64,000 nucleotides of DNA from an uncultured Candidatus Saccharibacteria bacterium (GTDB lineage: Bacteria; Patescibacteriota; Minisyncoccia; 2-02-FULL-40-12; GWA2-44-9), in contig CAZAUE010000002.1 of the NCBI GenBank assembly GCA_964488565.1, positions 40,048 to 104,047 of the forward strand, read 5' to 3'. Each line of letters starts with the position of its first letter. Position 1 is the first letter of the stretch. The notes beneath the pieces were generated by a model that saw only the letters and a list, made by a program, of their open reading frames with translations, ran no database searches and was not told the DNA's origin. The position numbers and the translations under genes were made by a program. Below, piece by piece: positions 3,353 through 48,029 of this stretch.

Positions 3353-4885
3353 TTATGCCAACTCGCTTAGCATCTTCTCATTAATGCGTAGATTTACAGC
3401 TTCGGCCACGTGTTGCTCTTTAATTATCTCAGAACCGTCTAAATCAGCGATAGTGCGGGCAAGCTTCTTGGTTTTATGATATGCCCTTAGTGATTGATTC
3501 TTTGCATTAATAGCTTGTTTGAGCAGATTCTCAGCCTCTTTGGTCAAAATACAGTATTTGTCTATGTTTTTATAATCAATCTCGGAATTATAAAACAAAC
3601 CAGTATTTCTGAACCTAGCCATCTGAATTTCTTTGGCTTTATTGATTTGAGCTTTAATTTCCGCCATTTTTACATTTCCTGAAGGGTAGACCTGTCCAAC
3701 TGTTTCGCGCGGAACATTGATTTGAATGTCTATTCTGTCTAATAACGGCCCAGACACCTTCTTTCTATATTTTAATACTTGAGTAGGGGAGCAGGAGCAA
3801 ATCCCCTTATCCTCGCCAAAATTACCACAGGGACAAGCATTCATAGCGGCCACCAAAGTGAAATTAGCTGGTAGGGTAATTGAGCTAGAGGCCCTAGAAA
3901 CAGAAATGGTGCCTTCTTCAAGGGGTTGCCTTAAGCTTTCTAGGACATTTCTTGGGAATTCCGGAAGTTCATCTAGAAACAAAACACCCCTGTGAGCTAA
4001 GCTTATTTCTCCTGGTTTTGGCCAAGTACCACCACCAACCATTGCTGGAGAAGACGTTGTATGATGCGGGCTTCTAAATGGGCGTTTAAACGAAAGAGGG
4101 GAGTTCTTAAATAGTCCGACTGAACTATAAATCTTGGCAACCTCAATCGCCTCCTCAAAAGACATTTTTGGCAACAACTCAGATAAGGCCTTAGCTAGTA
4201 ATGTTTTTCCTGAACCTGGAGGACCAGACATCAAGATGTTGTGAGCTCCAGCAGCTGCAATAATTAGGGCCCTTTTGGCCGTTTCTTGGCCCTTTATGGA
4301 CAACAATAGACCGTCGTCACCATCTTCAGGAGATTCATTTGTCTTTGCCCGCTCACTAAACAATGGTCGCGTGTTGTTTAAATGACCAACTACTTCTTTA
4401 ATATTCTTTGCCCCAACAACATTAATTCCTTGAACTATTTGCGCCTCAACAAGATTAGAATGGGGGACTATCAACTCTTTAAAACCCTTATTTTTTGCCA
4501 ATATTGCCGTAGCCAACACACCGTTGGTATGCTTTAAAGAGCCGTCTAAAGAAAGCTCGCCAATAAATAATTTTTTAGAGGAATCAAACTGTATTTGTTT
4601 GGTTTCCATCAAATAACCCACGGCAATCGGAAGGTCGTAGGATGGACCTTCTTTTTTAATATCAGCTGGGGCTAGGTTTATAATAATCTTTCTGTGCTTT
4701 GAGTTTGGCGCTGCCAAAGCGCTGTTCTTAATGGCTGAAGCAATCCTGTCTTTGGATTCTTGAACTGCTTTATCGGGAAGTCCGACAATATTAAAAACGT
4801 GAATACCTGGAGTTGAATCAACCTCAACCTCTATGAGTTGCGCGTCTATTCCGCTTATTGCGGAGGAAAAAAGTCTGATGGACAA
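3353..4885 (-). CDS. comM: ComM/YifB family Mg-chelatase-like AAA+ ATPase
   Basis: N-terminal Lon-like domain, Walker A GPPGSGKT, Walker B LFLDELPEF, and a C-terminal segment typical of YifB/ComM. 510 aa. Confidence 0.85.
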   Translation of the reverse strand: MSIRLFSSAISGIDAQLIEVEVDSTPGIHVFNIVGLPDKAVQESKDRIASAIKNSALAAPNSKHRKIIINLAPADIKKEGPSYDLPIAVGYLMETKQIQFDSSKKLFIGELSLDGSLKHTNGVLATAILAKNKGFKELIVPHSNLVEAQIVQGINVVGAKNIKEVVGHLNNTRPLFSERAKTNESPEDGDDGLLLSIKGQETAKRALIIAAAGAHNILMSGPPGSGKTLLAKALSELLPKMSFEEAIEVAKIYSSVGLFKNSPLSFKRPFRSPHHTTSSPAMVGGGTWPKPGEISLAHRGVLFLDELPEFPRNVLESLRQPLEEGTISVSRASSSITLPANFTLVAAMNACPCGNFGEDKGICSCSPTQVLKYRKKVSGPLLDRIDIQINVPRETVGQVYPSGNVKMAEIKAQINKAKEIQMARFRNTGLFYNSEIDYKNIDKYCILTKEAENLLKQAINAKNQSLRAYHKTKKLARTIADLDGSEIIKEQHVAEAVNLRINEKMLSELA

Positions 4886-5127
4886 AAAAGTGTATCGCCC
4901 CTCCTACGACTAGTTATGTTTAATATTAGAATAATAACCCTTATGTTTTAAAAAGCAATCTCTAATATCGCTCTCGCCCCTTATTATTTCCGCTCCCCAG
5001 CCACATACTCTTGAAAAACCGCAATTGGTTTTCTCCTGCGAAAAACCATTGCTTCATGCTCAGCGTTCCGAAGAACCAAGCCGAAACGCTTCCGCAACAT
5101 TTTTCAAGAATACGTGACTGGTTCGCT

Positions 5128-5306
5128 TAACCCGAGCCAATGCATTCTCGAACGGCTTTTGCGAAATAGCTCGGAGTGTGCCGTGCTTTAGCCGGCTTAA
5201 CTCTCTGTAGCGGGCATGGTGTCTGTCAGTAGACAGACGAGCTTATGAGCAATAGCAGGGAGCGAACACGCTGGGTGAGCGAGCGTAGTGAGAGGATGCT
5301 TGGAGA
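5128..5306. repeat. right (inverted) copy of the inverted repeat pair; carries a 40-bp extra module
   Basis: Reverse complement matches 441-586. An additional 40 bp (about 5173-5212) contains the GTGCTTTAGCC module also seen at 693-727 and 11303-11336. Confidence 0.85.
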
Positions 5307-5651
5307 GGGGTTGAAGAAATTTTAAGAATCAAAAAAGGCGCAGAACGCCCCTAATAAGTATGTAGTGTGGGCTCTGCGCCTTTGGGTCTCTTGCGAGACA
5401 TGAATTGCCGGCAATCCACGAATGTGTCTGACCACCAGCTAAAGATCTATACTAATTATACAAAGTCATTGGTGACACTGCAATAGCCAAACTGTGGATA
5501 AGGTGACACCATCAAACCATGGTGACATATTCATGGTGACACCATCAAATATTGGCTAATAGTGTCATTATTCCAAATAATCAGCCCCGCCAAGCGGGGC
5601 TGATTATTTACTAAATTTTATGGTGACAACAGGTTATGCACAAACCATCAC

Positions 5652-7079
5652 CTAAAATCCTTTGAGCTTATCTATTGTTCCAAAGATGGCTTCTCTCGAG
5701 TTTGTTACAACAAAATATGTTTTACCATTAGATGCCACAACAATTGAATAGTCTATCGTTCTGTCGGCAAATGGGAAATTCCAGAATCTAATGTTTGTGT
5801 TCCTGTATGAGTTGTTTGTAAAACCAGTTTGGTCTTTATTGCTTTTACCTAAAGAAAACAGGACCTTAAGATCGTTACTTAAACTATTTTCCCAACTGGT
5901 AATTACTTCGGAAGCACTGGCGGAATCTTTTAGTTCTGCGACAGCCACAATTCTATTAGAGGCAGTGGGTTCAATCAACAAATTACCCTTGGAGTCAAAA
6001 GATTCTTTTTGACCATAAACGAACATGGCGGAATCGTTTCCAATATTGCTTACTAATCCCACTGGAACGTTTAAGGCAAGTTTGGACAATAAATCAACAA
6101 AACCATAGGAAGTAGATGCGTTTTGAGCGTCGATAGTATTCAATATTTTAAATGATCCTGGAACCACAACCACCTTGCCAGTATCAGATACAAAAGACGC
6201 TAGTGCTCCAGTCTGTTTGATACTGACACTCTCTCTTACTACTCCGGAAAACATAGAGCTCAATGTTGGAGTAGGGGTTGGAACTGGTGTTTCTGTTGGA
6301 GTTGGCGTAGGAGTTTCAATTACAATCTCCGGGGCTGGTGCTCTTAAGATAAAGAACCAGTATGCAAATCCGGCCACCAATGCTATAGCGCCGATTCCCA
6401 AAAATAACACATTACGATTACCGCCCTTGGACCCAGCCTCAGGAACATAAATTTGTGACTTTTCCTCTGAAGTTGCTGGTGGTTTTGGGGCATCTTTCAT
6501 TTGAGCTAGTGGGCCCGTTTTCTGGCTTTCGCCCAAATTTACACTTGGAACTTTGAATTGCTGACCTGGTACTGCTGGCTTAGGAACGACGGGTTGAGGA
6601 GCAGGAGCTGCTTGTTCAACCTTTCTGGGAATATTAATTCCGGCTGGTTTTTGGCCTTGTTTTATATTAGAAATATCCTCACTCATTGTTCTGATTGAAG
6701 ATTGATATTCTTTTACGCCCGAGGTTGGTGGGGGAGTAACAGAAGATGGAGCTGGGGCTGGTTTTGATTGAGCAAATGACTGAGGGGGAACATTAAATTG
6801 TGGTCGTGGTGCTTCTGGTTTAGGTGTTGGAGTTGGAACAACTGGAGGTCTCACCGTGGTTGGTGGGACAAATGGTTTTGGTGCTGGCGAAGGAGGAGTT
6901 GCGGGTAAACCAGCCATTGGGGGAGATACTGGCGGTTTAGGTGTTGAGGGAATAGGTCTTGGTGCCTGAGTTGAAGGCGCAAGGGGCGGTGTCGGTGCTA
7001 CAGGATTTGTAGAACTTTTACTTAATTCCCTAACCAAGTCATTTATGTCCATAGTTTGGGGTTTCTGGTCATCTGCCAT
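5652..7079 (-). CDS. proline-rich membrane protein, hypothetical
   Basis: 475 aa. An N-terminal low-complexity P/T/A-rich region of about 200 aa, one TM helix (VLFLGIGAIALVAGFAYWFFIL), and a C-terminal globular domain. No recognisable family. Confidence 0.5.
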   Translation of the reverse strand: MADDQKPQTMDINDLVRELSKSSTNPVAPTPPLAPSTQAPRPIPSTPKPPVSPPMAGLPATPPSPAPKPFVPPTTVRPPVVPTPTPKPEAPRPQFNVPPQSFAQSKPAPAPSSVTPPPTSGVKEYQSSIRTMSEDISNIKQGQKPAGINIPRKVEQAAPAPQPVVPKPAVPGQQFKVPSVNLGESQKTGPLAQMKDAPKPPATSEEKSQIYVPEAGSKGGNRNVLFLGIGAIALVAGFAYWFFILRAPAPEIVIETPTPTPTETPVPTPTPTLSSMFSGVVRESVSIKQTGALASFVSDTGKVVVVPGSFKILNTIDAQNASTSYGFVDLLSKLALNVPVGLVSNIGNDSAMFVYGQKESFDSKGNLLIEPTASNRIVAVAELKDSASASEVITSWENSLSNDLKVLFSLGKSNKDQTGFTNNSYRNTNIRFWNFPFADRTIDYSIVVASNGKTYFVVTNSREAIFGTIDKLKGF

Positions 7080-11358: not shown

Positions 11359-12270
11359 ATGGACATTAAGACACTAAAAATCCAATATCTTGAACATCTA
11401 GAAATAGAGAAGAATCGTTCAGCTAAAACCCTTGAGAATTACGGGCGTTATTTGGATAGATTTTTACAATTCGCAAAAGTTTCCAATCCATCAGGAATTA
11501 CCGAAGATTTAATAAGACAGTACCGACTTCACTTAAACCGCCTGAAAGACAAAGAGGGGAACACTCTAAAAAAAGTCACCCAAAACTATCACATCATTGC
11601 CTTAAGAAATTTTTTGAAGTATTTAGCCAAAAGAGATATAAAATCCGTCCCAGCTGAAAAGGTTGAATTAGGAAAACAAGAAGATAGAGAAGTCACATTT
11701 CTTGAGGCTGATGAATTAGAAAGATTATTAAAATCACCCGAAGGAGATAATTTAGACACATTAAGAGACAGGGCTGTTCTTGGTACTTTGTTTAGTACTG
11801 GCATGCGTGTCTCTGAGCTTTGTTCATTGGATAGAAATAAAATAGACACAACTCGAGGAGAGCTAAGCATACGCGGGAAGGGGAGTAAGATTAGGGTGGT
11901 GTTTCTTTCTGATGACGCCAAAGAAGACATCAGTAAATACCTCTCTAAGCGTTCCGACATTGATGAGGCTCTTTTTATTCGAATTCCTAAATCAAAAACT
12001 TTTTCCAAAGACGACAACTTAAGGCTTACCCCACGAAGCATCCAAAGAATAGTTCAAAAATACGCCACCAAATCCGGCATCATGGGAAAGAGTGTCAGCC
12101 CTCACACCTTGCGTCACAGTTATGCCACCGACCTTCTACGCAATGGTGCCGACATCCGCTCCGTTCAGTCAATGCTCGGACACTCATCCGTCACTACAAC
12201 TCAAATCTATACTCACGTTACAGACAAGCAACTTAGAGAAGTGCACAAGAAATTTCATAACAAAAAATGA
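11359..12270 (+). CDS. xerC: tyrosine recombinase XerC/XerD family
   Basis: N-terminal SAM-like domain. Catalytic region with R...HTLRHSYAT...Y (TQIYTHV). 303 aa. Confidence 0.85.
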   Translation: MDIKTLKIQYLEHLEIEKNRSAKTLENYGRYLDRFLQFAKVSNPSGITEDLIRQYRLHLNRLKDKEGNTLKKVTQNYHIIALRNFLKYLAKRDIKSVPAEKVELGKQEDREVTFLEADELERLLKSPEGDNLDTLRDRAVLGTLFSTGMRVSELCSLDRNKIDTTRGELSIRGKGSKIRVVFLSDDAKEDISKYLSKRSDIDEALFIRIPKSKTFSKDDNLRLTPRSIQRIVQKYATKSGIMGKSVSPHTLRHSYATDLLRNGADIRSVQSMLGHSSVTTTQIYTHVTDKQLREVHKKFHNKK

Positions 12271-13612: not shown

Positions 13613-13702
13613 TGTAAAGGTCCTTCTTTGATACTAATTGCTTACAAAAATACCGCATTTAGCGGTATTGGTAAAGGAGGAGGAAGTCTGGGGGGGACTC
13701 GG

Positions 13703-13880
13703 TCACAGATAATTCTTCACTACTGGGGAGGGACTCGCCCACAAGTTGAATTGTCTTCCGACAATTCTCTTGCGGGCCCAGCTCGTGGTTTCGCTCGCCA
13801 ATTGCTCGCGAAACATCACTGCGCTTTTCGAGTCACTACGCGAGCCAAGCAGTTGGCTCGCTCCCTCGGGCTACTGAGTA
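13703..13880. repeat. GC-rich insert downstream of tRNA-Leu carrying a partial duplicate of the tRNA 3' end
   Basis: ctggggagggactcg at 13723-13737 duplicates the tRNA-Leu T-arm and acceptor sequence (13929-13943). It shares the cccagctcgtggttt...aacatcactgcgcttt module with 32470-32530. GC content is far above the flanks. Confidence 0.6.
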
Positions 13881-13920
13881 GTAAATTAAAATCGCTGTAA
13901 TTACAGCGATTTTAATTTAC
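13881..13920. repeat. perfect 40-bp palindrome (bidirectional hairpin terminator) at the tRNA-Leu 3' end
   Basis: gtaaattaaaatcgctgtaa|ttacagcgattttaatttac: perfect 20-bp arms. Separates tRNA-Leu from the GC-rich insert. Confidence 0.7.
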
Positions 13921-13925
13921 TAAAG

Positions 13926-14007
13926 TGCCCGGGGAGGGACTCGAACCCTCAATCCTTACGGAACACGATTTTAAGTCGTGCGTGTATACCAATTCCACCA
14001 CCCGGGC
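13926..14007 (-). tRNA. tRNA-Leu (anticodon TAA), long variable arm
   Basis: Minus-strand cloverleaf: acceptor gcccggg/cccgggc, anticodon loop cuUAAaa, T arm gaggg-ttcgagt-ccctc. No encoded CCA. Confidence 0.75.
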
Positions 14008-16525: not shown

Positions 16526-16615
16526 GGAGACGTGTCAGAGTGGTCTAATGTGCCTCTTTGCTAAAGAGGTGATCGGTTTATCCCGGTCCGGAGGTTCGAA
16601 TCCTCCCGTCTCCGC
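16526..16615 (+). tRNA. tRNA-Ser (anticodon GCT), long variable arm
   Basis: Acceptor ggagacg/cgtctcc, anticodon loop uuGCUaa, long variable arm, T arm ggagg-ttcgaat-cctcc. Confidence 0.75.
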
Positions 16616-16761
16616 AGTGATAAATAAGGACAGCCGGTGGCTGTCCTTATTTAGTATCAATGCGTGATAGGGAGGATGAGAAAGGCGGAGCGCTGGCGCG
16701 AGCCGGGGTCGCGGAATTTTTCAGTAGAAAAATATCTGTGACCGAATCCTCCCGTCTCCGC
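16616..16761. repeat. about 145-bp GC-rich insert after tRNA-Ser ending in a 19-bp duplicate of the tRNA 3' end
   Basis: cgaatcctcccgtctccgc at 16597-16615 is repeated at 16743-16761. The insert begins with a terminator hairpin (aaataaggacagccggtggctgtccttattt) and contains the cgcgagccggggtcgcgg module. Confidence 0.65.
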
Positions 16762-20021: not shown

Positions 20022-20120
20022 GCATTTGTCCAAAAGCGAAGCGATTGGCTACAAATGCTTACCCGCCTAAGGCGGGTGACAAGTTTATAACTATTCGCTT
20101 CGCTCATAGATAAACATGTC

Positions 20121-32399: not shown

Positions 32400-32569
32400 A
32401 ACTCCCTTTAGGGAGTTTTATAATCTGGTGGTCACAAGTATTTTTCCTGACGGAAAAATCTCGCGACCCCAGCTCGTGGTTTTTGCCTTTCGCTATCGCT
32501 CAAACAAAAACATCACTGCGCTTTCCAAAAGCTAAAAATCTAAAGCAGTTTAGATTTTCTGACGCTTTG

Positions 32570-32640
32570 TGGACCTACCGAGAGTCGAACTCGGCCCTCT
32601 TCCATGCCATGGAAGCGTAATACCGATTTACTATAGGCCC
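32570..32640 (-). tRNA. tRNA-Ala (anticodon GGC)
   Basis: Acceptor gggccua with a G3:U70 pair (Ala identity), anticodon loop auGGCau, T arm ccgag-ttcgact-ctcgg. Confidence 0.7.
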
Positions 32641-32804: not shown

Positions 32805-32876
32805 GCCCTCGTAGTTCAATGGATAGAACAAATCCGTCCTAAGGATAAAATGGGGGTCCGATTCCCTCCGAGGGCA
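32805..32876 (+). tRNA. tRNA-Arg (anticodon CCT)
   Basis: Acceptor gccctcg/cgagggc, D arm with GG, anticodon loop guCCUaa. The T loop reads tccgatt (C at position 55), which is unusual, so confidence is moderate. Confidence 0.55.
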
Positions 32877-33031
32877 CAAATTATGTTACGTTTTACGTAA
32901 AGCAAGTGAACTGCTTCACTTGCGTCAGAATTTGTGAGTTCGGAACTTATGACAGTCAATAGACTGTCATGTGAGAACGGGGTCGCGACCGAGCCAAGCG
33001 ACGGCGAGGCGAGAGTTGTGACCAAAAAGAT

Positions 33032-34465
33032 ATGAAATTACCAGAAGAAGTCCAAAATATAATCAAAAAGCTTCAAGATTCAGGATTTGAGGGGTATGCC
33101 GTGGGTGGCTGTGTCCGAGATTTATTATTGGGCAAAGAACCCAAAGATTGGGACATTACAACCAACGCCAAGCCGGAGGAAATACAAAACATATTTCCTG
33201 AACATGTTTACGAAAACACATTTGGAACCGTAGCGGTTAAAACCGGTTCAGAAAAATCTGAGCTTACTCTTGTTGAAGTTACACCGTATCGCATTGAAGG
33301 CAAATACACGGACAAACGCCATCCTGATGATGTTAAATTTGCCGACAAACTTGAAGACGATTTATCGCGTCGTGATTTTACGGTTAATGCTCTGGCGATG
33401 GATATTGATGGCAAAATCATAGATCTTTTTGATGGCAAAAAAGACTTGAAATCAAAAACAATAAGAACTGTAGGCGAGCCGGAAGAAAGATTTAATGAGG
33501 ATGCTTTGAGGTTGCTACGGGCCGTAAGATTCGCAACAATTCTTGATTTTAAAATAGAAAAGAAAACATTAGAAGCGGTAACCAAAAATTCAGATTGGTT
33601 GATAGCTATATCCAAAGAAAGAATCAGAGATGAGTTTGTTAAAATAATCAATTCTGACAACGCATATGATGGAATTGTACTTCTTAATGAAACAGGGTTA
33701 TTAAAACATATTGTTCCGGAACTATTAGAAGGAATCGGAGTTGGTCAAAACCTTCATCATATTTATACAGTCTGGGAACACAATCTTTTAGCTCTTAAGT
33801 ATGCCGTCAGTAAAAACTACTCACTGGAGGTAAGGCTTGGTTCATTGTTTCATGACATTGGTAAACCTCAAACAAAAAGAGGGGACGGGAAACATTCAAC
33901 CTTTTATGGACATGATGTGGTTGGGGCTAGAATAACCGCTGAGGTAATGGATAGATTAAAGTTCCCCAAAGAAACAGCCGAGAAAGTTATCAAACTTGTC
34001 CGTTACCATCTTTTCTATTACAACGTAGATGAGGTGACCGAATCCTCTGTAAGACGATTATTGGTGAACGTTGGTCCTGAAAACATGAGCGACCTAATAA
34101 AAATACGAGAAGCAGATAGAATTGGTTCAGGGACACCAAAAGCAGTTCCTTATAAATTAAGGCACCTGCAATATATCATTGATAAGGTTTCCCATGACCC
34201 GATTTCTGTAAAAATGTTAAAGGTCGGCGGAGAAGATGTTATAAAGGAACTTAAAACCCAACCAGGACCTAAGGTTGGATTGATTTTAAACTATCTTTTA
34301 GCTGAAGTAATAGATGATCCGTCAAAAAATACAAAAGAATATCTAGAACAAAGAATCCATGAATTAGATAAAGAGTCCCCAGAAGAATTAAAAAAATCAT
34401 TAGAAAAGATAGAGAAGGCGATTGAGGAGGAGGAGAAGGAAAGAATGAAGAAGTATTACGTTTAA
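33032..34465 (+). CDS. cca: CCA-adding tRNA nucleotidyltransferase with C-terminal HD domain
   Basis: Pol-beta NTase motif GGCVRDLLLG..DWDI, RRDFTVNALA, and an HD domain (HHIYTVWEH...FHDIGK). All tRNAs in the window lack an encoded CCA. Confidence 0.85.
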   Translation: MKLPEEVQNIIKKLQDSGFEGYAVGGCVRDLLLGKEPKDWDITTNAKPEEIQNIFPEHVYENTFGTVAVKTGSEKSELTLVEVTPYRIEGKYTDKRHPDDVKFADKLEDDLSRRDFTVNALAMDIDGKIIDLFDGKKDLKSKTIRTVGEPEERFNEDALRLLRAVRFATILDFKIEKKTLEAVTKNSDWLIAISKERIRDEFVKIINSDNAYDGIVLLNETGLLKHIVPELLEGIGVGQNLHHIYTVWEHNLLALKYAVSKNYSLEVRLGSLFHDIGKPQTKRGDGKHSTFYGHDVVGARITAEVMDRLKFPKETAEKVIKLVRYHLFYYNVDEVTESSVRRLLVNVGPENMSDLIKIREADRIGSGTPKAVPYKLRHLQYIIDKVSHDPISVKMLKVGGEDVIKELKTQPGPKVGLILNYLLAEVIDDPSKNTKEYLEQRIHELDKESPEELKKSLEKIEKAIEEEEKERMKKYYV

Positions 34466-34468
34466 TTT

Positions 34469-34540
34469 CGGGCCGTAGTGTAACGGTAACACGCACGATT
34501 CGGGTTCGTGAGACTCCGGGTTCAAATCCCGGCGGCCCGA
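34469..34540 (+). tRNA. tRNA-Pro (anticodon CGG)
   Basis: Acceptor cgggccg/cggcccg, anticodon stem cacga/tcgtg, loop uuCGGgu, T arm ccggg-ttcaaat-cccgg. Confidence 0.75.
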
Positions 34541-34710
34541 CTGGAGCAACGCGAAAGGAGGGGTGCAGCAAACAAACTACTTTGTTTGCGTCGAGAAGTG
34601 AAAAGCGGAGCGATATTTCTCGAACAGTTGGTGAGAGAAATCGCGAGCTGGGCCTGCGACCGAGCCGACGGAAGTCGGCGAGAGTTGTAGGCAAATCCCG
34701 GCGGCCCGAC
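34541..34710. repeat. about 170-bp GC-rich insert after tRNA-Pro ending in a perfect 19-bp duplicate of the tRNA 3' end
   Basis: caaatcccggcggcccgac at 34523-34541 is repeated at 34692-34710. The insert carries the gcgaccgagcc...cggcgagagttgt module shared with 32985-33020. Confidence 0.7.
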
Positions 34711-34720
34711 AAGCATCTGG

Positions 34721-35215
34721 TCAGTTAGGCTTTTTTCTTATTATTATTTTTATAGCTCTTTTCATGGTTTCAAAAATAACTGGAAGTTCAAGATAGTCTA
34801 TAGATATGGCTAGCCATGCAACGATATGGTTCCAGTGACCCACCAAACTTGCGTAACCCAAAACCTGGATAACCATTTCGTCGGTTATCCATAAAATATG
34901 CAACCACTGAACATTCAAGAAAATAAGGAAAAACAAATCTTTCCTGTTTGGTTTAATTTTGTATGATCTTAGATACACCAAAGAAGTTGCCACTATGGCC
35001 GGAATTTCAGTATAATCAACAACCGCTATGGTAGTATTGAAAAGGTGATTAATTAAAAACGGGGCAACGTCAAAAATTCTAGGAATTACCACGTTTGTAG
35101 TCAACCACAGAAGATGAATCAGTTGAATTGAAAATAATGCCCCAGCAAAGACAACATTGAAATCATCATGGTTGTCATACCACCTTAAAAATTTGCGCAC
35201 GATATTAGAAAACAT
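34721..35215 (-). CDS. hypothetical polytopic membrane protein
   Basis: 164 aa, 4-5 predicted TM helices. No recognisable family. Confidence 0.4.
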   Translation of the reverse strand: MFSNIVRKFLRWYDNHDDFNVVFAGALFSIQLIHLLWLTTNVVIPRIFDVAPFLINHLFNTTIAVVDYTEIPAIVATSLVYLRSYKIKPNRKDLFFLIFLNVQWLHILWITDEMVIQVLGYASLVGHWNHIVAWLAISIDYLELPVIFETMKRAIKIIIRKKPN

Positions 35216-35254: not shown

Positions 35255-35326
35255 GGGCCCGCCCTCACACCTACTTAGCACTGAGGGCCTCCGGCCCTAA
35301 AGTGTTATTGTGCTAAGTAGGTGTGA
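35255..35326. repeat. 65-bp palindromic insert flanked by a 7-bp direct repeat (gggcccg) at the 5' end of tRNA-Ala(CGC)
   Basis: Perfect 20-bp arms ccctcacacctacttagcac / gtgctaagtaggtgtgaggg (35262-35281 / 35310-35329) with a GC hairpin in the loop. gggcccg at 35255-35261 duplicates the tRNA acceptor 5' strand at 35327-35333. Confidence 0.65.
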
Positions 35327-35397
35327 GGGCCCGTAGTTAAGTGGCATAACGCGACATTCGCATTGTCGAGGCGGGAGTTCGATTCTCCCCGGGTCCA
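35327..35397 (+). tRNA. tRNA-Ala (anticodon CGC)
   Basis: Acceptor gggcccg/cgggucc with G3:U70, anticodon stem cgaca/tgtcg, loop uuCGCau, T arm gggag-ttcgatt-ctccc. Confidence 0.7.
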
Positions 35398-47465: not shown

Positions 47466-48029
47466 ATGGGATACGAATCAGAAGAAAAAAAAGAGTCGTT
47501 AAATCCAGAAAATAAACAAAACAGGCTGGACCGGATCTGGGAACAACAAGAGGGGCTTGAGCCAGGTAGCGCTAATCAGTCAAAGCAGGAAAGACTGGAA
47601 CGAATCTTGGAACAACAAGAACAGCTCGAATCAGACAGGGCTGTTTATCAAAACGAGCAAGAAAGAGAAAGTGCGGAAGCAAAAAATCAATCTCCACAAG
47701 CACAACCATACAAAATGGGGGCTGGGTCTTATGTCCTTATACTCTTTGCTCTTTTCGTTGATATAATTGAAATAATAACAACCTACACAGGGGTTGGTGC
47801 TATAATTTCTATCCCACTGGGTCTTCTTGTGGATGTTATAATATTTTTAGGGGTTGGCATGTCCAAAGATGCTCGAAAACAGTGGAAACGATTTGCTGTT
47901 GGGTTTGTTGGAGAAAATTTCCCCATACTTGCCTCAGTTCTTGAATTCATACCATTCCGAACACTTTCTTTAATCTGGATGTATCGAGGCATGAGTAGTC
48001 CTCAACAAGAAGATCCTGGGGTAAACTAA
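47466..48029 (+). CDS. hypothetical protein with charged N-terminal repeats and C-terminal two-TM hairpin
   Basis: Repeats RLDRIWEQQEGLE / RLERILEQQEQLE. C-terminal hydrophobic hairpin (VLILFALFVDIIEIITTYTGVGAIISIPLGLLVDVIIFLGVG). Operon position follows VirB4. Confidence 0.4.
   Translation: MGYESEEKKESLNPENKQNRLDRIWEQQEGLEPGSANQSKQERLERILEQQEQLESDRAVYQNEQERESAEAKNQSPQAQPYKMGAGSYVLILFALFVDIIEIITTYTGVGAIISIPLGLLVDVIIFLGVGMSKDARKQWKRFAVGFVGENFPILASVLEFIPFRTLSLIWMYRGMSSPQQEDPGVN

Follow-up and report, generated by a model that had tools for sequence, protein, structure and literature searches.

What is the short, GC-rich insert that lies between the tRNA-Pro(CGG) gene and a second copy of this gene's 3′ end in the 64,000-nucleotide (nt) stretch of Patescibacteria DNA analysed here (contig CAZAUE010000002.1 of assembly GCA_964488565.1; hereafter the window)? 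The comparison of the window with 132 individual genomic loci, each labelled by L and a number, leads us to favour, with somewhat more confidence than doubt, the view that it is a non-autonomous, Campbell-type miniature integrative element, moved in trans, which belongs to a large family in Patescibacteria. The evidence comes from the repeats that bound the insert, from homologous elements behind other genes, from a conserved folded core and from loci at which the same site is empty.

The repeat that frames the insert, CAAATCCCGGCGGCCCGAC (19 nt), occurs exactly twice in the window, as X1 at the end of tRNA-Pro and as X2 beyond the insert (coordinates in Table 1), and by chance no match would be expected, even with two mismatches allowed. 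The perfect 19-bp repeat around a GC-rich insert of 150 nt (34542-34691), which the first-pass annotation of this DNA had pointed out, is thus exact. The G+C content is ~0.59 over the part of the insert matched by the family model, versus ~0.39-0.41 in the surrounding window, and the insert folds markedly more stably than shuffled sequences do (RNA z = -5.9; DNA z = -3.2). Homologous elements are located 3′ of five of the seven tRNA genes in the window, namely those for Leu(TAA), Ser(GCT), Ala(GGC), Arg(CCT) and Pro(CGG), in all five cases on the same strand as the tRNA; tRNA-Cys and tRNA-Ala(CGC) carry none. A signature shared by three tRNAs had also been claimed, and indeed tRNA-Ser has a 19-nt repeat (16597-16615 / 16743-16761) and tRNA-Leu a 13-nt repeat (13931-13943 / 13725-13737), while the repeats at Ala-GGC and Arg are short, of ~4-8 nt. 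Likewise, the GC-rich module that had been seen to recur at 32985-33020 beside tRNA-Arg proved in alignment A1 to be the P2 arm of the homologous element at that gene. When the window was scanned with the covariance model of the family, R1, with filters off, exactly these five real copies were matched (E 1e-12 to 1e-24). A sixth candidate at 5006-5112 (14 bits) was rejected as unlike the family, and a motif-like match at 20034 as unrelated to it.

The family extends far beyond this window. A pattern built from two conserved junction motifs and run on a species-representative genome collection gave 99 loci, ~65 of them in Patescibacteria and the remainder chance matches in high-GC coding DNA. 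The ~65 loci, from Saccharibacteria, Paceibacterota, Yanofsky-, Kaiser-, Morani-, Nomurabacteria and similar lineages, contain ~95 real copies according to model R1, each ~130-250 bp in size and with a maximum of five per 8 kb; in L029, five out of five consecutive tRNAs are occupied by one element each. With five copies in the window and ~95 elsewhere, the family goes beyond the three loci known from the first-pass annotation, which had proposed a genome-wide search as a check. Judged from these sequence searches, the family is widespread in, and specific to, Patescibacteria (candidate phyla radiation, CPR, bacteria), and the window's own homologues of the CCA-adding enzyme and of initiation factor IF-2 point to Candidatus Yanofskybacteria. 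Rfam 15 identified only tRNAs in the window at gathering thresholds; it gave no match over the Pro insert at E <= 10, nor over the five L029 copies at E <= 1, and its ribozyme, IS605, HEARO and intron models did not match the element. Two pattern scans of IMG/VR (2.9 million viral contigs) returned only chance matches in high-GC coding DNA, for which reason a virus or plasmid origin was rejected. A literature search found no description of the family, and the tRNA insertions reported from CPR bacteria (PMC13011429) are group I introns in the anticodon loop, with no mention of these elements. We appear, then, to be dealing with an undescribed family of protein-less mobile insertions behind gene 3′ ends.

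The common feature of all copies is a folded core. Alignment A2 (MAFFT, 39 copies with 12-nt flanks) yielded with RNAalifold a three-way junction of the helices P0, P1 and P2. In P0 an antisense arm of the 5′ flank, IR-L, pairs with the ~10 nt that open the downstream repeat, C56 of the T-loop being the partner of the G in the conserved GAAAAGCG; P0 is followed by a short AAA joiner, by P1 extended by AGC/GCU and a tandem G.A motif, by a GG joiner and by P2 (GGUCGCGA.../...UUGUGACC), which adjoins the repeat with zero gap. Paired cells amount to 88.3% in A2, versus 69.7% in shuffled alignments (none of 500 reaches the observed value) and 35-44% with slid partners. Double-sided changes occur in 26 of the 33 pairs, all ten pairs of P0 covary, and a G.U pair in P2 is invariant in 38 of 39 sequences; owing to the G.U pairs, only the sense strand is able to form this fold. 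A conserved hairpin with a CUGC loop, hp0, stands upstream of IR-L, so that the full unit reads, on the sense strand of the target, X1, terminator (if present), acceptor-complement strand, hp0, IR-L, core and X2. Two classes can be distinguished. Class 1 has an X that starts at C56 of the T-loop and extends to the tRNA end (position 74-76). In class 2, to which the Ala-GGC and Arg elements of the window and most Saccharibacteria copies belong, X comprises N73-C74 plus a few trailer bases only, hp0 begins at the tRNA end, and the arm covaries with the short X (CACAAAC, GACAAGC, CACAGAC and so on). Without exception in the ~95 copies, the right junction coincides exactly with P2's last C and, within X, with the homologous position.

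The Pro copy shows this anatomy throughout. Its spacer strand forms a duplex of -12.0 kcal/mol with GGCGGCCCGAC, whereas its IR-L is degenerate, 8 of 11 positions pairing with CAAATCCCGGC. In the core, J(AAA) leads into AGC/GCU, the P1 extension that holds tandem G.A pairs; next come the hairpin of P1 (34611-34643), J(GG) and P2 (34652-34692), which includes the conserved G.U and whose last C (34692) is common to core and repeat. No promoter-like site was seen in the Pro insert. As for the other copies in the window, the Ser element is composed of a hairpin, IR-L GGGAGGAT, which pairs with ATCCTCCC, a core with reduced P1, and X2. In the Leu element a terminator comes first, then GCCCGAGGGA as acceptor-complement strand, hp0, GACTC as IR-L and the core; its X2 is truncated. 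Directly behind the element lies the 3′-end remnant of an older element, and in a comparison with L109 the downstream flank is common to both loci; at the level of sequence, this remnant indicates serial insertion at one tRNA. The Ala-GGC element starts with a long hairpin at the tRNA end, with X1 = CCACAAAGC (32564-32572) and an antisense arm (rcX) GCTTTTGG (32525-32532), followed by the core and a short X2 (CCACCAG). The junctions of the Arg element are divergent (X1 = CACAAATT, 32875-32882; rcX = AATTTGTG, 32929-32936), its P2 is similar to that of the Pro copy, and it ends 8 nt ahead of the start codon of the CCA-adding enzyme, whose gene (33032-34465) is placed between two element-bearing tRNAs. 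All seven tRNA genes of the window end in N73-C74, the next base being A in six of them (not in tRNA-Pro), and none encodes a full CCA. The strand of tRNA-Ser(GCT) relative to infB and a ComF-like gene is opposite to that in L110/L111, a sequence arrangement that points to a local inversion or to replacement of the tRNA along with its element.

Table 1. Elements, their parts at the tRNA-Pro locus and a candidate recombinase gene in the window
Feature	Position	Strand	Evidence or remark
tRNA-Pro(CGG), intact	34469-34541	+	ARAGORN; Rfam tRNA 67 bits
X1 at Pro: last 19 nt of the tRNA, T-loop C56 through C74	34523-34541	+	
Pro spacer	34542-34567	+	holds a weak complement of the acceptor 3′ strand (GGAGGGGTG region)
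Hairpin hp0, Pro (GCAAACAAA-CUAC-UUUGUUUGC; family tetraloop CUGC/CUAC)	34568-34589	+	
IR-L antisense arm (rcX), Pro	34590-34600	+	last G pairs with C56 of the repeat
Three-way-junction core, Pro	34601-34692	+	model R1 match 34588-34704, 82 bits, E ~6e-23; covariation
X2 at Pro, second copy of the tRNA-Pro 3′ end	34692-34710	+	
Element of tRNA-Leu(TAA) (tRNA 13925-14007)	13725-13924	-	model R1 88 bits
3′-end remnant of an older element (..ATCTGTGACC/GAGTCCCCCCC), directly downstream of the Leu element	13690-13724	-	
Element of tRNA-Ser(GCT) (tRNA 16526-16615)	16616-16761	+	model R1 59.5 bits
Class-2 element of tRNA-Ala(GGC) (tRNA 32569-32640)	32422-32568	-	model R1 87.6 bits
Class-2 element of tRNA-Arg(CCT) (tRNA 32805-32877)	32878-33023	+	model R1 49 bits, match 32922-33035
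Xer-family tyrosine recombinase gene	11359-12267	+	Pfam Phage_integrase 147 bits

The choice of targets and the relation between the two repeat copies tell most about how these elements arrive. In a census of the 90 copies scoring >= 40 bits, 70 (78%) had a tRNA (18 isotypes) or tmRNA (three cases) on the same strand no more than 320 nt upstream. Elements also directly follow topA at three independent loci (L046, L048, L049) and rplB at one (L081), and every target is the 3′ end of a highly conserved gene. The repeats measure 10-24 nt at many loci and 7-39 nt overall. At the topA gene of L049, 39 identical nt are followed in each copy by a different yet homologous C-terminal coding sequence with its stop codon, a pattern that excludes a single duplication with uniform decay and fits a gene end imported from another lineage. 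The antisense arm of L046, CAATTGTCTTTGTG, fits X1 (CACAAAGACAAT) but fails to match X2, which together with the downstream sequence still encodes the old C-terminus. In tRNA-Ser of both the window and L097, X2 runs on into CCA, as do the tRNA-Ser genes of relatives, and X1 lacks it; at tmRNA sites X2 has decayed and the arms still fit X1. Together with the preference of IR-L for X1 described below, the topA, tRNA-Ser and tmRNA patterns show that X1, terminator, arms and core arrive as one unit. X2 is thus host sequence that was displaced and decays, with the junction at X's left edge; at the Pro locus, X2 would by analogy be the displaced original 3′ end. The element brings a working replacement gene end, and the upstream tRNAs are all intact. 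The direct repeat noticed at the outset is accordingly real, but it is not a simple target-site duplication: it is the block of identity between an element-borne end and the displaced original. A fixed target-site duplication was rejected, given that the duplications of L049 and L046 are at first identical and then diverged but homologous.

No open reading frame (ORF) lies between the repeat copies of any pair, in agreement with the earlier claim that the elements encode no integrase. Between the end of the upstream repeat copy and the core there are 73-193 nt in each of the 24 pairs found, and no pair is spaced by more than 193 nt, as would mark cargo-bearing relatives. These uniformly small distances bear on the proposal that the copies are the decayed remnants of large integrated elements such as prophages or islands, of which only the att-proximal ends are left. 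Tyrosine-integrase elements are classically recognised by repeats of tRNA 3′ ends that begin at the T-loop, and several layers of tRNA fragments are seen at L044, L102 and L130, as such a history could leave behind. Nevertheless, neither cargo nor a remnant of an integrase was seen in the pairs, the core is highly conserved and covarying, and it is absent from the 2.9 million viral contigs, so that we consider this origin very improbable. Further candidates were discarded on structural grounds: a retroviral-type primer-binding site for the tRNA 3′ end, as the same architecture occurs at topA and rplB; an intron in the T-loop, as the upstream tRNA is complete and a replacement end is carried; and a group I or group II intron, as Rfam gave no intron match and the upstream tRNA is complete.

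Occupancy of these sites varies among relatives. Syntenic relatives whose CCA-adding enzymes are 86-89% identical keep the order tRNA-Ala-GGC, tRNA-Arg, CCA gene, tRNA-Pro and tRNA-Ala-CGC. In L100 and L101 all four of these tRNAs are empty, tRNA-Pro is also empty in L106-L108, and in L101 and L107 tRNA-Ala-CGC follows only 12-16 nt after tRNA-Pro. A scan of metagenomes with the 3′ half of tRNA-Pro gave 20 loci, of which 15 were empty, four filled (L117, L128, L118, L130) and one occupied by another small insert. The filled L118 and the empty L125 have the same tRNA and homologous downstream flanks, and differ exactly by the element plus one copy of X; filled and empty sites thus occur among related metagenomic loci. 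Behind tRNA-Ala-CGC, which is empty in L113, L120, L122 and L132, L114 carries a class-2 element 97% identical to the Ala-GGC copy of the window, and the tRNA-Leu of L109 (IF-2 92% identical) holds a core variant different from that in the window. Saccharibacteria copies are 83-95% identical to the class-2 element of the window over ~100-150 nt, far above the neutral expectation for non-coding DNA over such distances. The view of a recently active family of miniature elements is borne out by the copies, the empty sites and the filled/empty pair; its restriction to tRNA genes is not, since tmRNA, topA and rplB are targeted too.

The 3′ end of tRNA-Pro also bounds other small inserts that lack the family core (L103 5006-5135, L102 4881-5035, L130/L131), with a 24-nt repeat around just 37 nt in L103 and a common structured insert, different from the family core, in L130 and L131; this gene end is a general hot spot. 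In the window, an ORF for a hydrophobic protein of 164 aa (34721-35215, minus strand) without family match separates the Pro element from tRNA-Ala(CGC); it is absent where the tRNA-Pro and tRNA-Ala(CGC) of relatives stand 12-51 nt apart and has a homologue in reversed orientation after tRNA-Pro in L124.

Alternatively, the core could act as an RNA, namely as a ribozyme, as a tRNA-like RNA processed by RNase P/Z or as a guide or bridge RNA for a recombinase or nuclease, with arms that would base-pair, in cis or in trans, with either the tRNA or its gene, mobility being secondary to, or driven by, the RNA activity. The strand-specific structure with its invariant G.U, tandem G.A pairs and compensatory changes is in line with this possibility, as are the constant position on the sense strand of the target and the RNA folding score of the Pro insert given above. 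Moreover, the unit plus X folds in a cloverleaf-like manner, with an acceptor-like helix ending in N73-C(CA), hp0 and a T-stem-like helix, and in the Pro, Ser and Arg copies of the window no terminator intervenes before the core. Both the acceptor-like and the T-stem-like helix arise from pairing of the arms with X; with the T-loop bases themselves engaged by IR-L, this fold would leave no room for a tRNA-like elbow. In 41 of 69 copies (59%) a terminator-like hairpin with a T-run stands between gene and core, with no room for a promoter, which argues that the core is not primarily a transcript. In addition, Rfam is silent at E <= 10, ribozymes included, presence of the element differs among close relatives, so that it is not essential, and a replacement 3′ end would be needless if removal took place at the RNA level. 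We therefore regard a function as RNA as unlikely, though deserving of attention.

The arms of the elements are, as a rule, complementary to the genes behind which they reside. Duplexes of IR-L have energies of -11.6 kcal/mol with the cognate X1 and -9.9 with the cognate X2 (Wilcoxon p = 3e-5), versus -7.8 and -6.6 kcal/mol with non-cognate genes; for the gene end, the cognate and non-cognate values differ at p = 3e-8. In many copies a second antisense strand, directly 5′ of hp0, is complementary to the acceptor 3′ strand of the target (GCGGAGACGG/CCGTCTCCGC in L097; GTGGAGATGG/CCATCTCCAC in L043). The spacer pairs with the last 11 nt of the cognate gene at -12.7, versus -9.2 for non-cognate genes (p = 2.5e-8), and the cognate gene ranks first to third of 39 as its partner in 20 of 39 cases; this strand gave a significant result against X1 and not against X2 (p = 0.11). 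Taken together, the two arms cover in antisense the final ~20 nt of the target gene, and in L061 they match the upstream tmRNA gene. The defining feature of the family is the combination of a conserved three-way-junction core with target-complementary arms, which suggests a folded or guided att site.

The elements might also be miniature derivatives (PATE-like) of IS200/IS605-type or other HUH, single-strand transposons, in which a DNA guide beside a hairpin would pair with the target and with the end of the element. The structure is strand-specific and hairpin-rich, the size is typical of such derivatives, and the guide-like arm beside hp0 can pair with the left flank (X1) as well as with the 3′ end (X2). 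IS200/IS605 elements, however, make no repeats and insert 3′ of a 4-5 nt target, whereas here the repeats are of 7-39 nt and the elements carry a diverged replacement gene end; besides, no Y1 transposase or TnpB was seen beside any copy, and the Rfam IS605 and HEARO models were silent. Such a descent is accordingly judged to be improbable. An arrangement of scaffold plus 3′ guide, as in TnpB omega-RNA or Cas systems, was rejected: the 3′ flank is target-sense, being the displaced gene end, and there is no nuclease gene nearby.

We propose that integration of a Campbell-type element would take place at the left edge of X, from a small excised and probably circular form, the exchange being made through site-specific recombination by a recombinase encoded elsewhere. 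The att site might be a folded single-strand junction of hp0, the IR-L:X helix and P2, comparable to the attC of integrons or the attP of the CTX phage. In the free form, the IR-L:X helix would recreate the target duplex at the crossover, and hp0 and P2 would be the conserved flanking arms that bind the enzyme. An insertion of this kind would be nearly harmless because the element restores the gene 3′ end and often the terminator too, which may permit its build-up behind most tRNAs of a genome.

The same replacement of gene ends could come about with no dedicated recombinase, by transformation and homologous or short-homology recombination, or by conversion after the cut of a tRNA-directed homing endonuclease, of which these genomes commonly have some. 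Homology would then be provided on the left by the conserved gene and on the right by X2, with the antisense arms masking X1 and compacting the heterology loop. In line with this route, the targets (tRNA, tmRNA, topA and rplB 3′ ends) are among the most conserved sequences, X1 and X2 of topA are diverged homologues, and tRNA-Leu as a whole departs in L109 from the ancestral X2, with changes on both strands of the acceptor, as co-conversion predicts. LAGLIDADG or GIY-YIG ORFs and duplicated tRNA fragments abut the tRNAs of relatives (L074, L108, L110/L111; in L101 by eye), and the window has competence-type genes (PilM, ComF-like). Against it, the P2/X junction is precise in ~95 copies, as a site-specific event predicts, near-identical elements occur at different tRNAs with only 7-9 nt in common, and the conserved core sequence would be left without reason. 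We hold this explanation to be quite unlikely.

Several observations nonetheless weigh against a Campbell-type element moved in trans. No recombinase is tied to the elements: the genes next to the copies are housekeeping genes, and nothing links the Xer-family gene of the window to them. This gene, which is syntenic in L109 and reaches 232 bits with the NCBIfam XerA/integron-integrase model (cut-off 220), is only a candidate for the trans-acting enzyme. Neither an autonomous relative nor a circular form or excision junction was found in the 132 loci or in the IMG/VR scans, and an empty allele with the window's own downstream flank had no exact match in the metagenome collection. The original repeat copy at the Pro locus was assigned by analogy. 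Nor does the proposal account for the match of X1, arms and target across more than 20 genes, and the element of L072 is located in tRNA-Leu with a 14-nt repeat, yet its arms fit another tRNA, so that pairing of arms and target is not strictly needed for residence. Finally, the conserved G.U, the tandem G.A and GNRA-like loops are traits of functional RNAs, which the lack of a terminator before the core in three window copies does not contradict, and the occupation of all five neighbouring tRNAs in L029 is unusually high for a purely selfish element.

A bolder version of the proposal, which we put forward as a tentative idea, is that the elements are 'self-addressed' protein-less circles of less than 250 nt, in which the bipartite antisense guide names the final ~20 nt of the target gene and the three-way junction recruits a host recombinase, possibly the single enzyme of the Xer type. 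If this were true, they would be the first such elements and would amount to programmable, guide-specified recombination, with the folded single strand, or its RNA, as att; in many Patescibacteria they would have spread to most tRNA genes, and they would move between phylum-level lineages.

Other small insertions are found next to the same tRNA genes. Just before tRNA-Ala(CGC), at 35255-35333, a duplicated GGGCCCG (the first 7 nt of the tRNA) surrounds a 65-nt insert with 20-nt terminal inverted repeats (TIRs), CCCTCACACCTACTTAGCAC and GTGCTAAGTAGGTGTGAGGG. In L108 (~4024-4360), inverted repeats of the same kind enclose a GIY-YIG endonuclease ORF at the same position, and by sequence the 65-nt insert looks like a miniature of an endonuclease element that targets tRNA 5′ ends. 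In L108 (3939-4900), L115 and L123, the resident tRNA-Ala(CGC) is split by one or more GIY-YIG-type ORFs accompanied by a complete second tRNA-Ala(CGC), identical to that of the window, so that the cassette replaces the tRNA that it disrupts. LAGLIDADG-type ORFs abut tRNAs in L110/L111, after tRNA-Cys (~4530-5400 in locus orientation), in L074 and in L101 (2308-2940); the Pfam match is clear in L074 and faint in L110/L111, and the ORF of L101 was recognised by eye only. In L110/L111 the T-loop of tRNA-Cys is unusual (TGCAAGT), and behind this gene stands an old 3′ fragment of tRNA-Cys whose T-loop is normal, as if the linked tRNA had been made resistant to the endonuclease. Elsewhere in the window, a gene-free region of 770 nt (4886-5651) contains a perfect DnaA-box TTATCCACA, four GTGTCACC repeats and a GC-rich stretch; Rfam gave nothing for it at E <= 1, and ORF 5652-7079 on its flank is without Pfam domain. 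Within the ORF 47466-48029, two tandem 60-nt units that are 72% alike recur at a spacing of 69 nt (47514-47642).

Patescibacteria are usually called poor in mobile DNA and have tiny genomes, yet elements stand behind five of seven tRNAs in this 64-kb window. The family unites traits that are rarely combined: its restoration of the gene end recalls integrative elements, its conserved folded core attC or ribozymes, and its target-complementary arms guided transposons. If the arms really set the site, they would represent a minimal and naturally re-targetable recombination substrate. On the practical side, displaced 3′ fragments and GC-rich modules can mislead tRNA annotation, binning and synteny analysis in CPR genomes, and covariance model R1 offers a direct means of mapping the elements.

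How, then, do these elements compare with known systems? Tyrosine-integrase elements that follow the Campbell model integrate at tRNA and tmRNA genes, and the cis-mobilizable elements (CIMEs) of Streptococcus integrative and conjugative elements (ICEs) represent integrase-less derivatives of this kind. Our elements share with tRNA-integrating elements the insertion into the 3′ part of the target, an identity block that extends from the T-loop or the extreme 3′ end to the gene end, a working replacement end, a decaying displaced fragment and tandem accretion at one site. They differ in being gene-free units of 130-250 bp, none of which has an integrase gene, in the use of more than 20 targets by one family, and in att-proximal DNA that, unlike an ordinary attP, consists of a conserved, covarying three-way junction with target-antisense arms. 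An autonomous relative with the same ends, as the logic of CIMEs and of miniature inverted-repeat transposable elements (MITEs) would have it, was not found in the 132 loci or the IMG/VR scans. Unlike those of MITEs, moreover, the inverted arms change with the target, and the repeat varies from 7 to 39 nt in length, its far part being free to diverge.

The attC of integron cassettes and the attP of the CTX phage are folded single-strand recombination sites. From a comparison of sequences, a recombination site of the present elements would, like attC, form by pairing within one specific strand; the predicted topology agrees, with a helix, IR-L:X (cf. R″/R′), that encloses the core and has the junction, the presumed crossover, at its inner end. 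Other common traits are a variable helix conserved more in structure than in sequence and a mobile unit without a recombinase of its own. They differ from attC in that RYYYAAC/GTTRRRY boxes, an attI platform and a cassette ORF are all absent, with no intI-attI beside any copy, in that the outer helix copies each target (e.g. GTGGGATTTG/CAAATCCCAC) and in that the flanking arms are conserved in sequence; their targets are gene 3′ ends, and not an integron or dif as for integron cassettes and CTX. Guide-programmed elements are represented by IS110/IS1111, with bridge or seek RNAs, and by IS200/IS605, with DNA guides. They too have a short target-complementary stretch beside a structured scaffold, covarying with the insertion site; here, in contrast, none of the copies is accompanied by a DEDD or HUH transposase gene, the scaffold has no Rfam match, and neither the repeat nor the replacement gene end belongs to the repertoire of those families. 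With the tRNA-directed homing-endonuclease cassettes (GIY-YIG in L108, LAGLIDADG in L074/L110) the elements have in common the same tRNAs and the duplicated fragments; those cassettes, however, carry an endonuclease ORF, and that of L108 also TIRs at the tRNA 5′ end, whereas the elements are ORF-less and have a core of their own. In place and manner of insertion the elements resemble tRNA-integrating islands, and in the make-up of their ends attC sites or guided transposons; they are integrative elements at gene 3′ ends, and there is a realistic chance that their mechanism is new.

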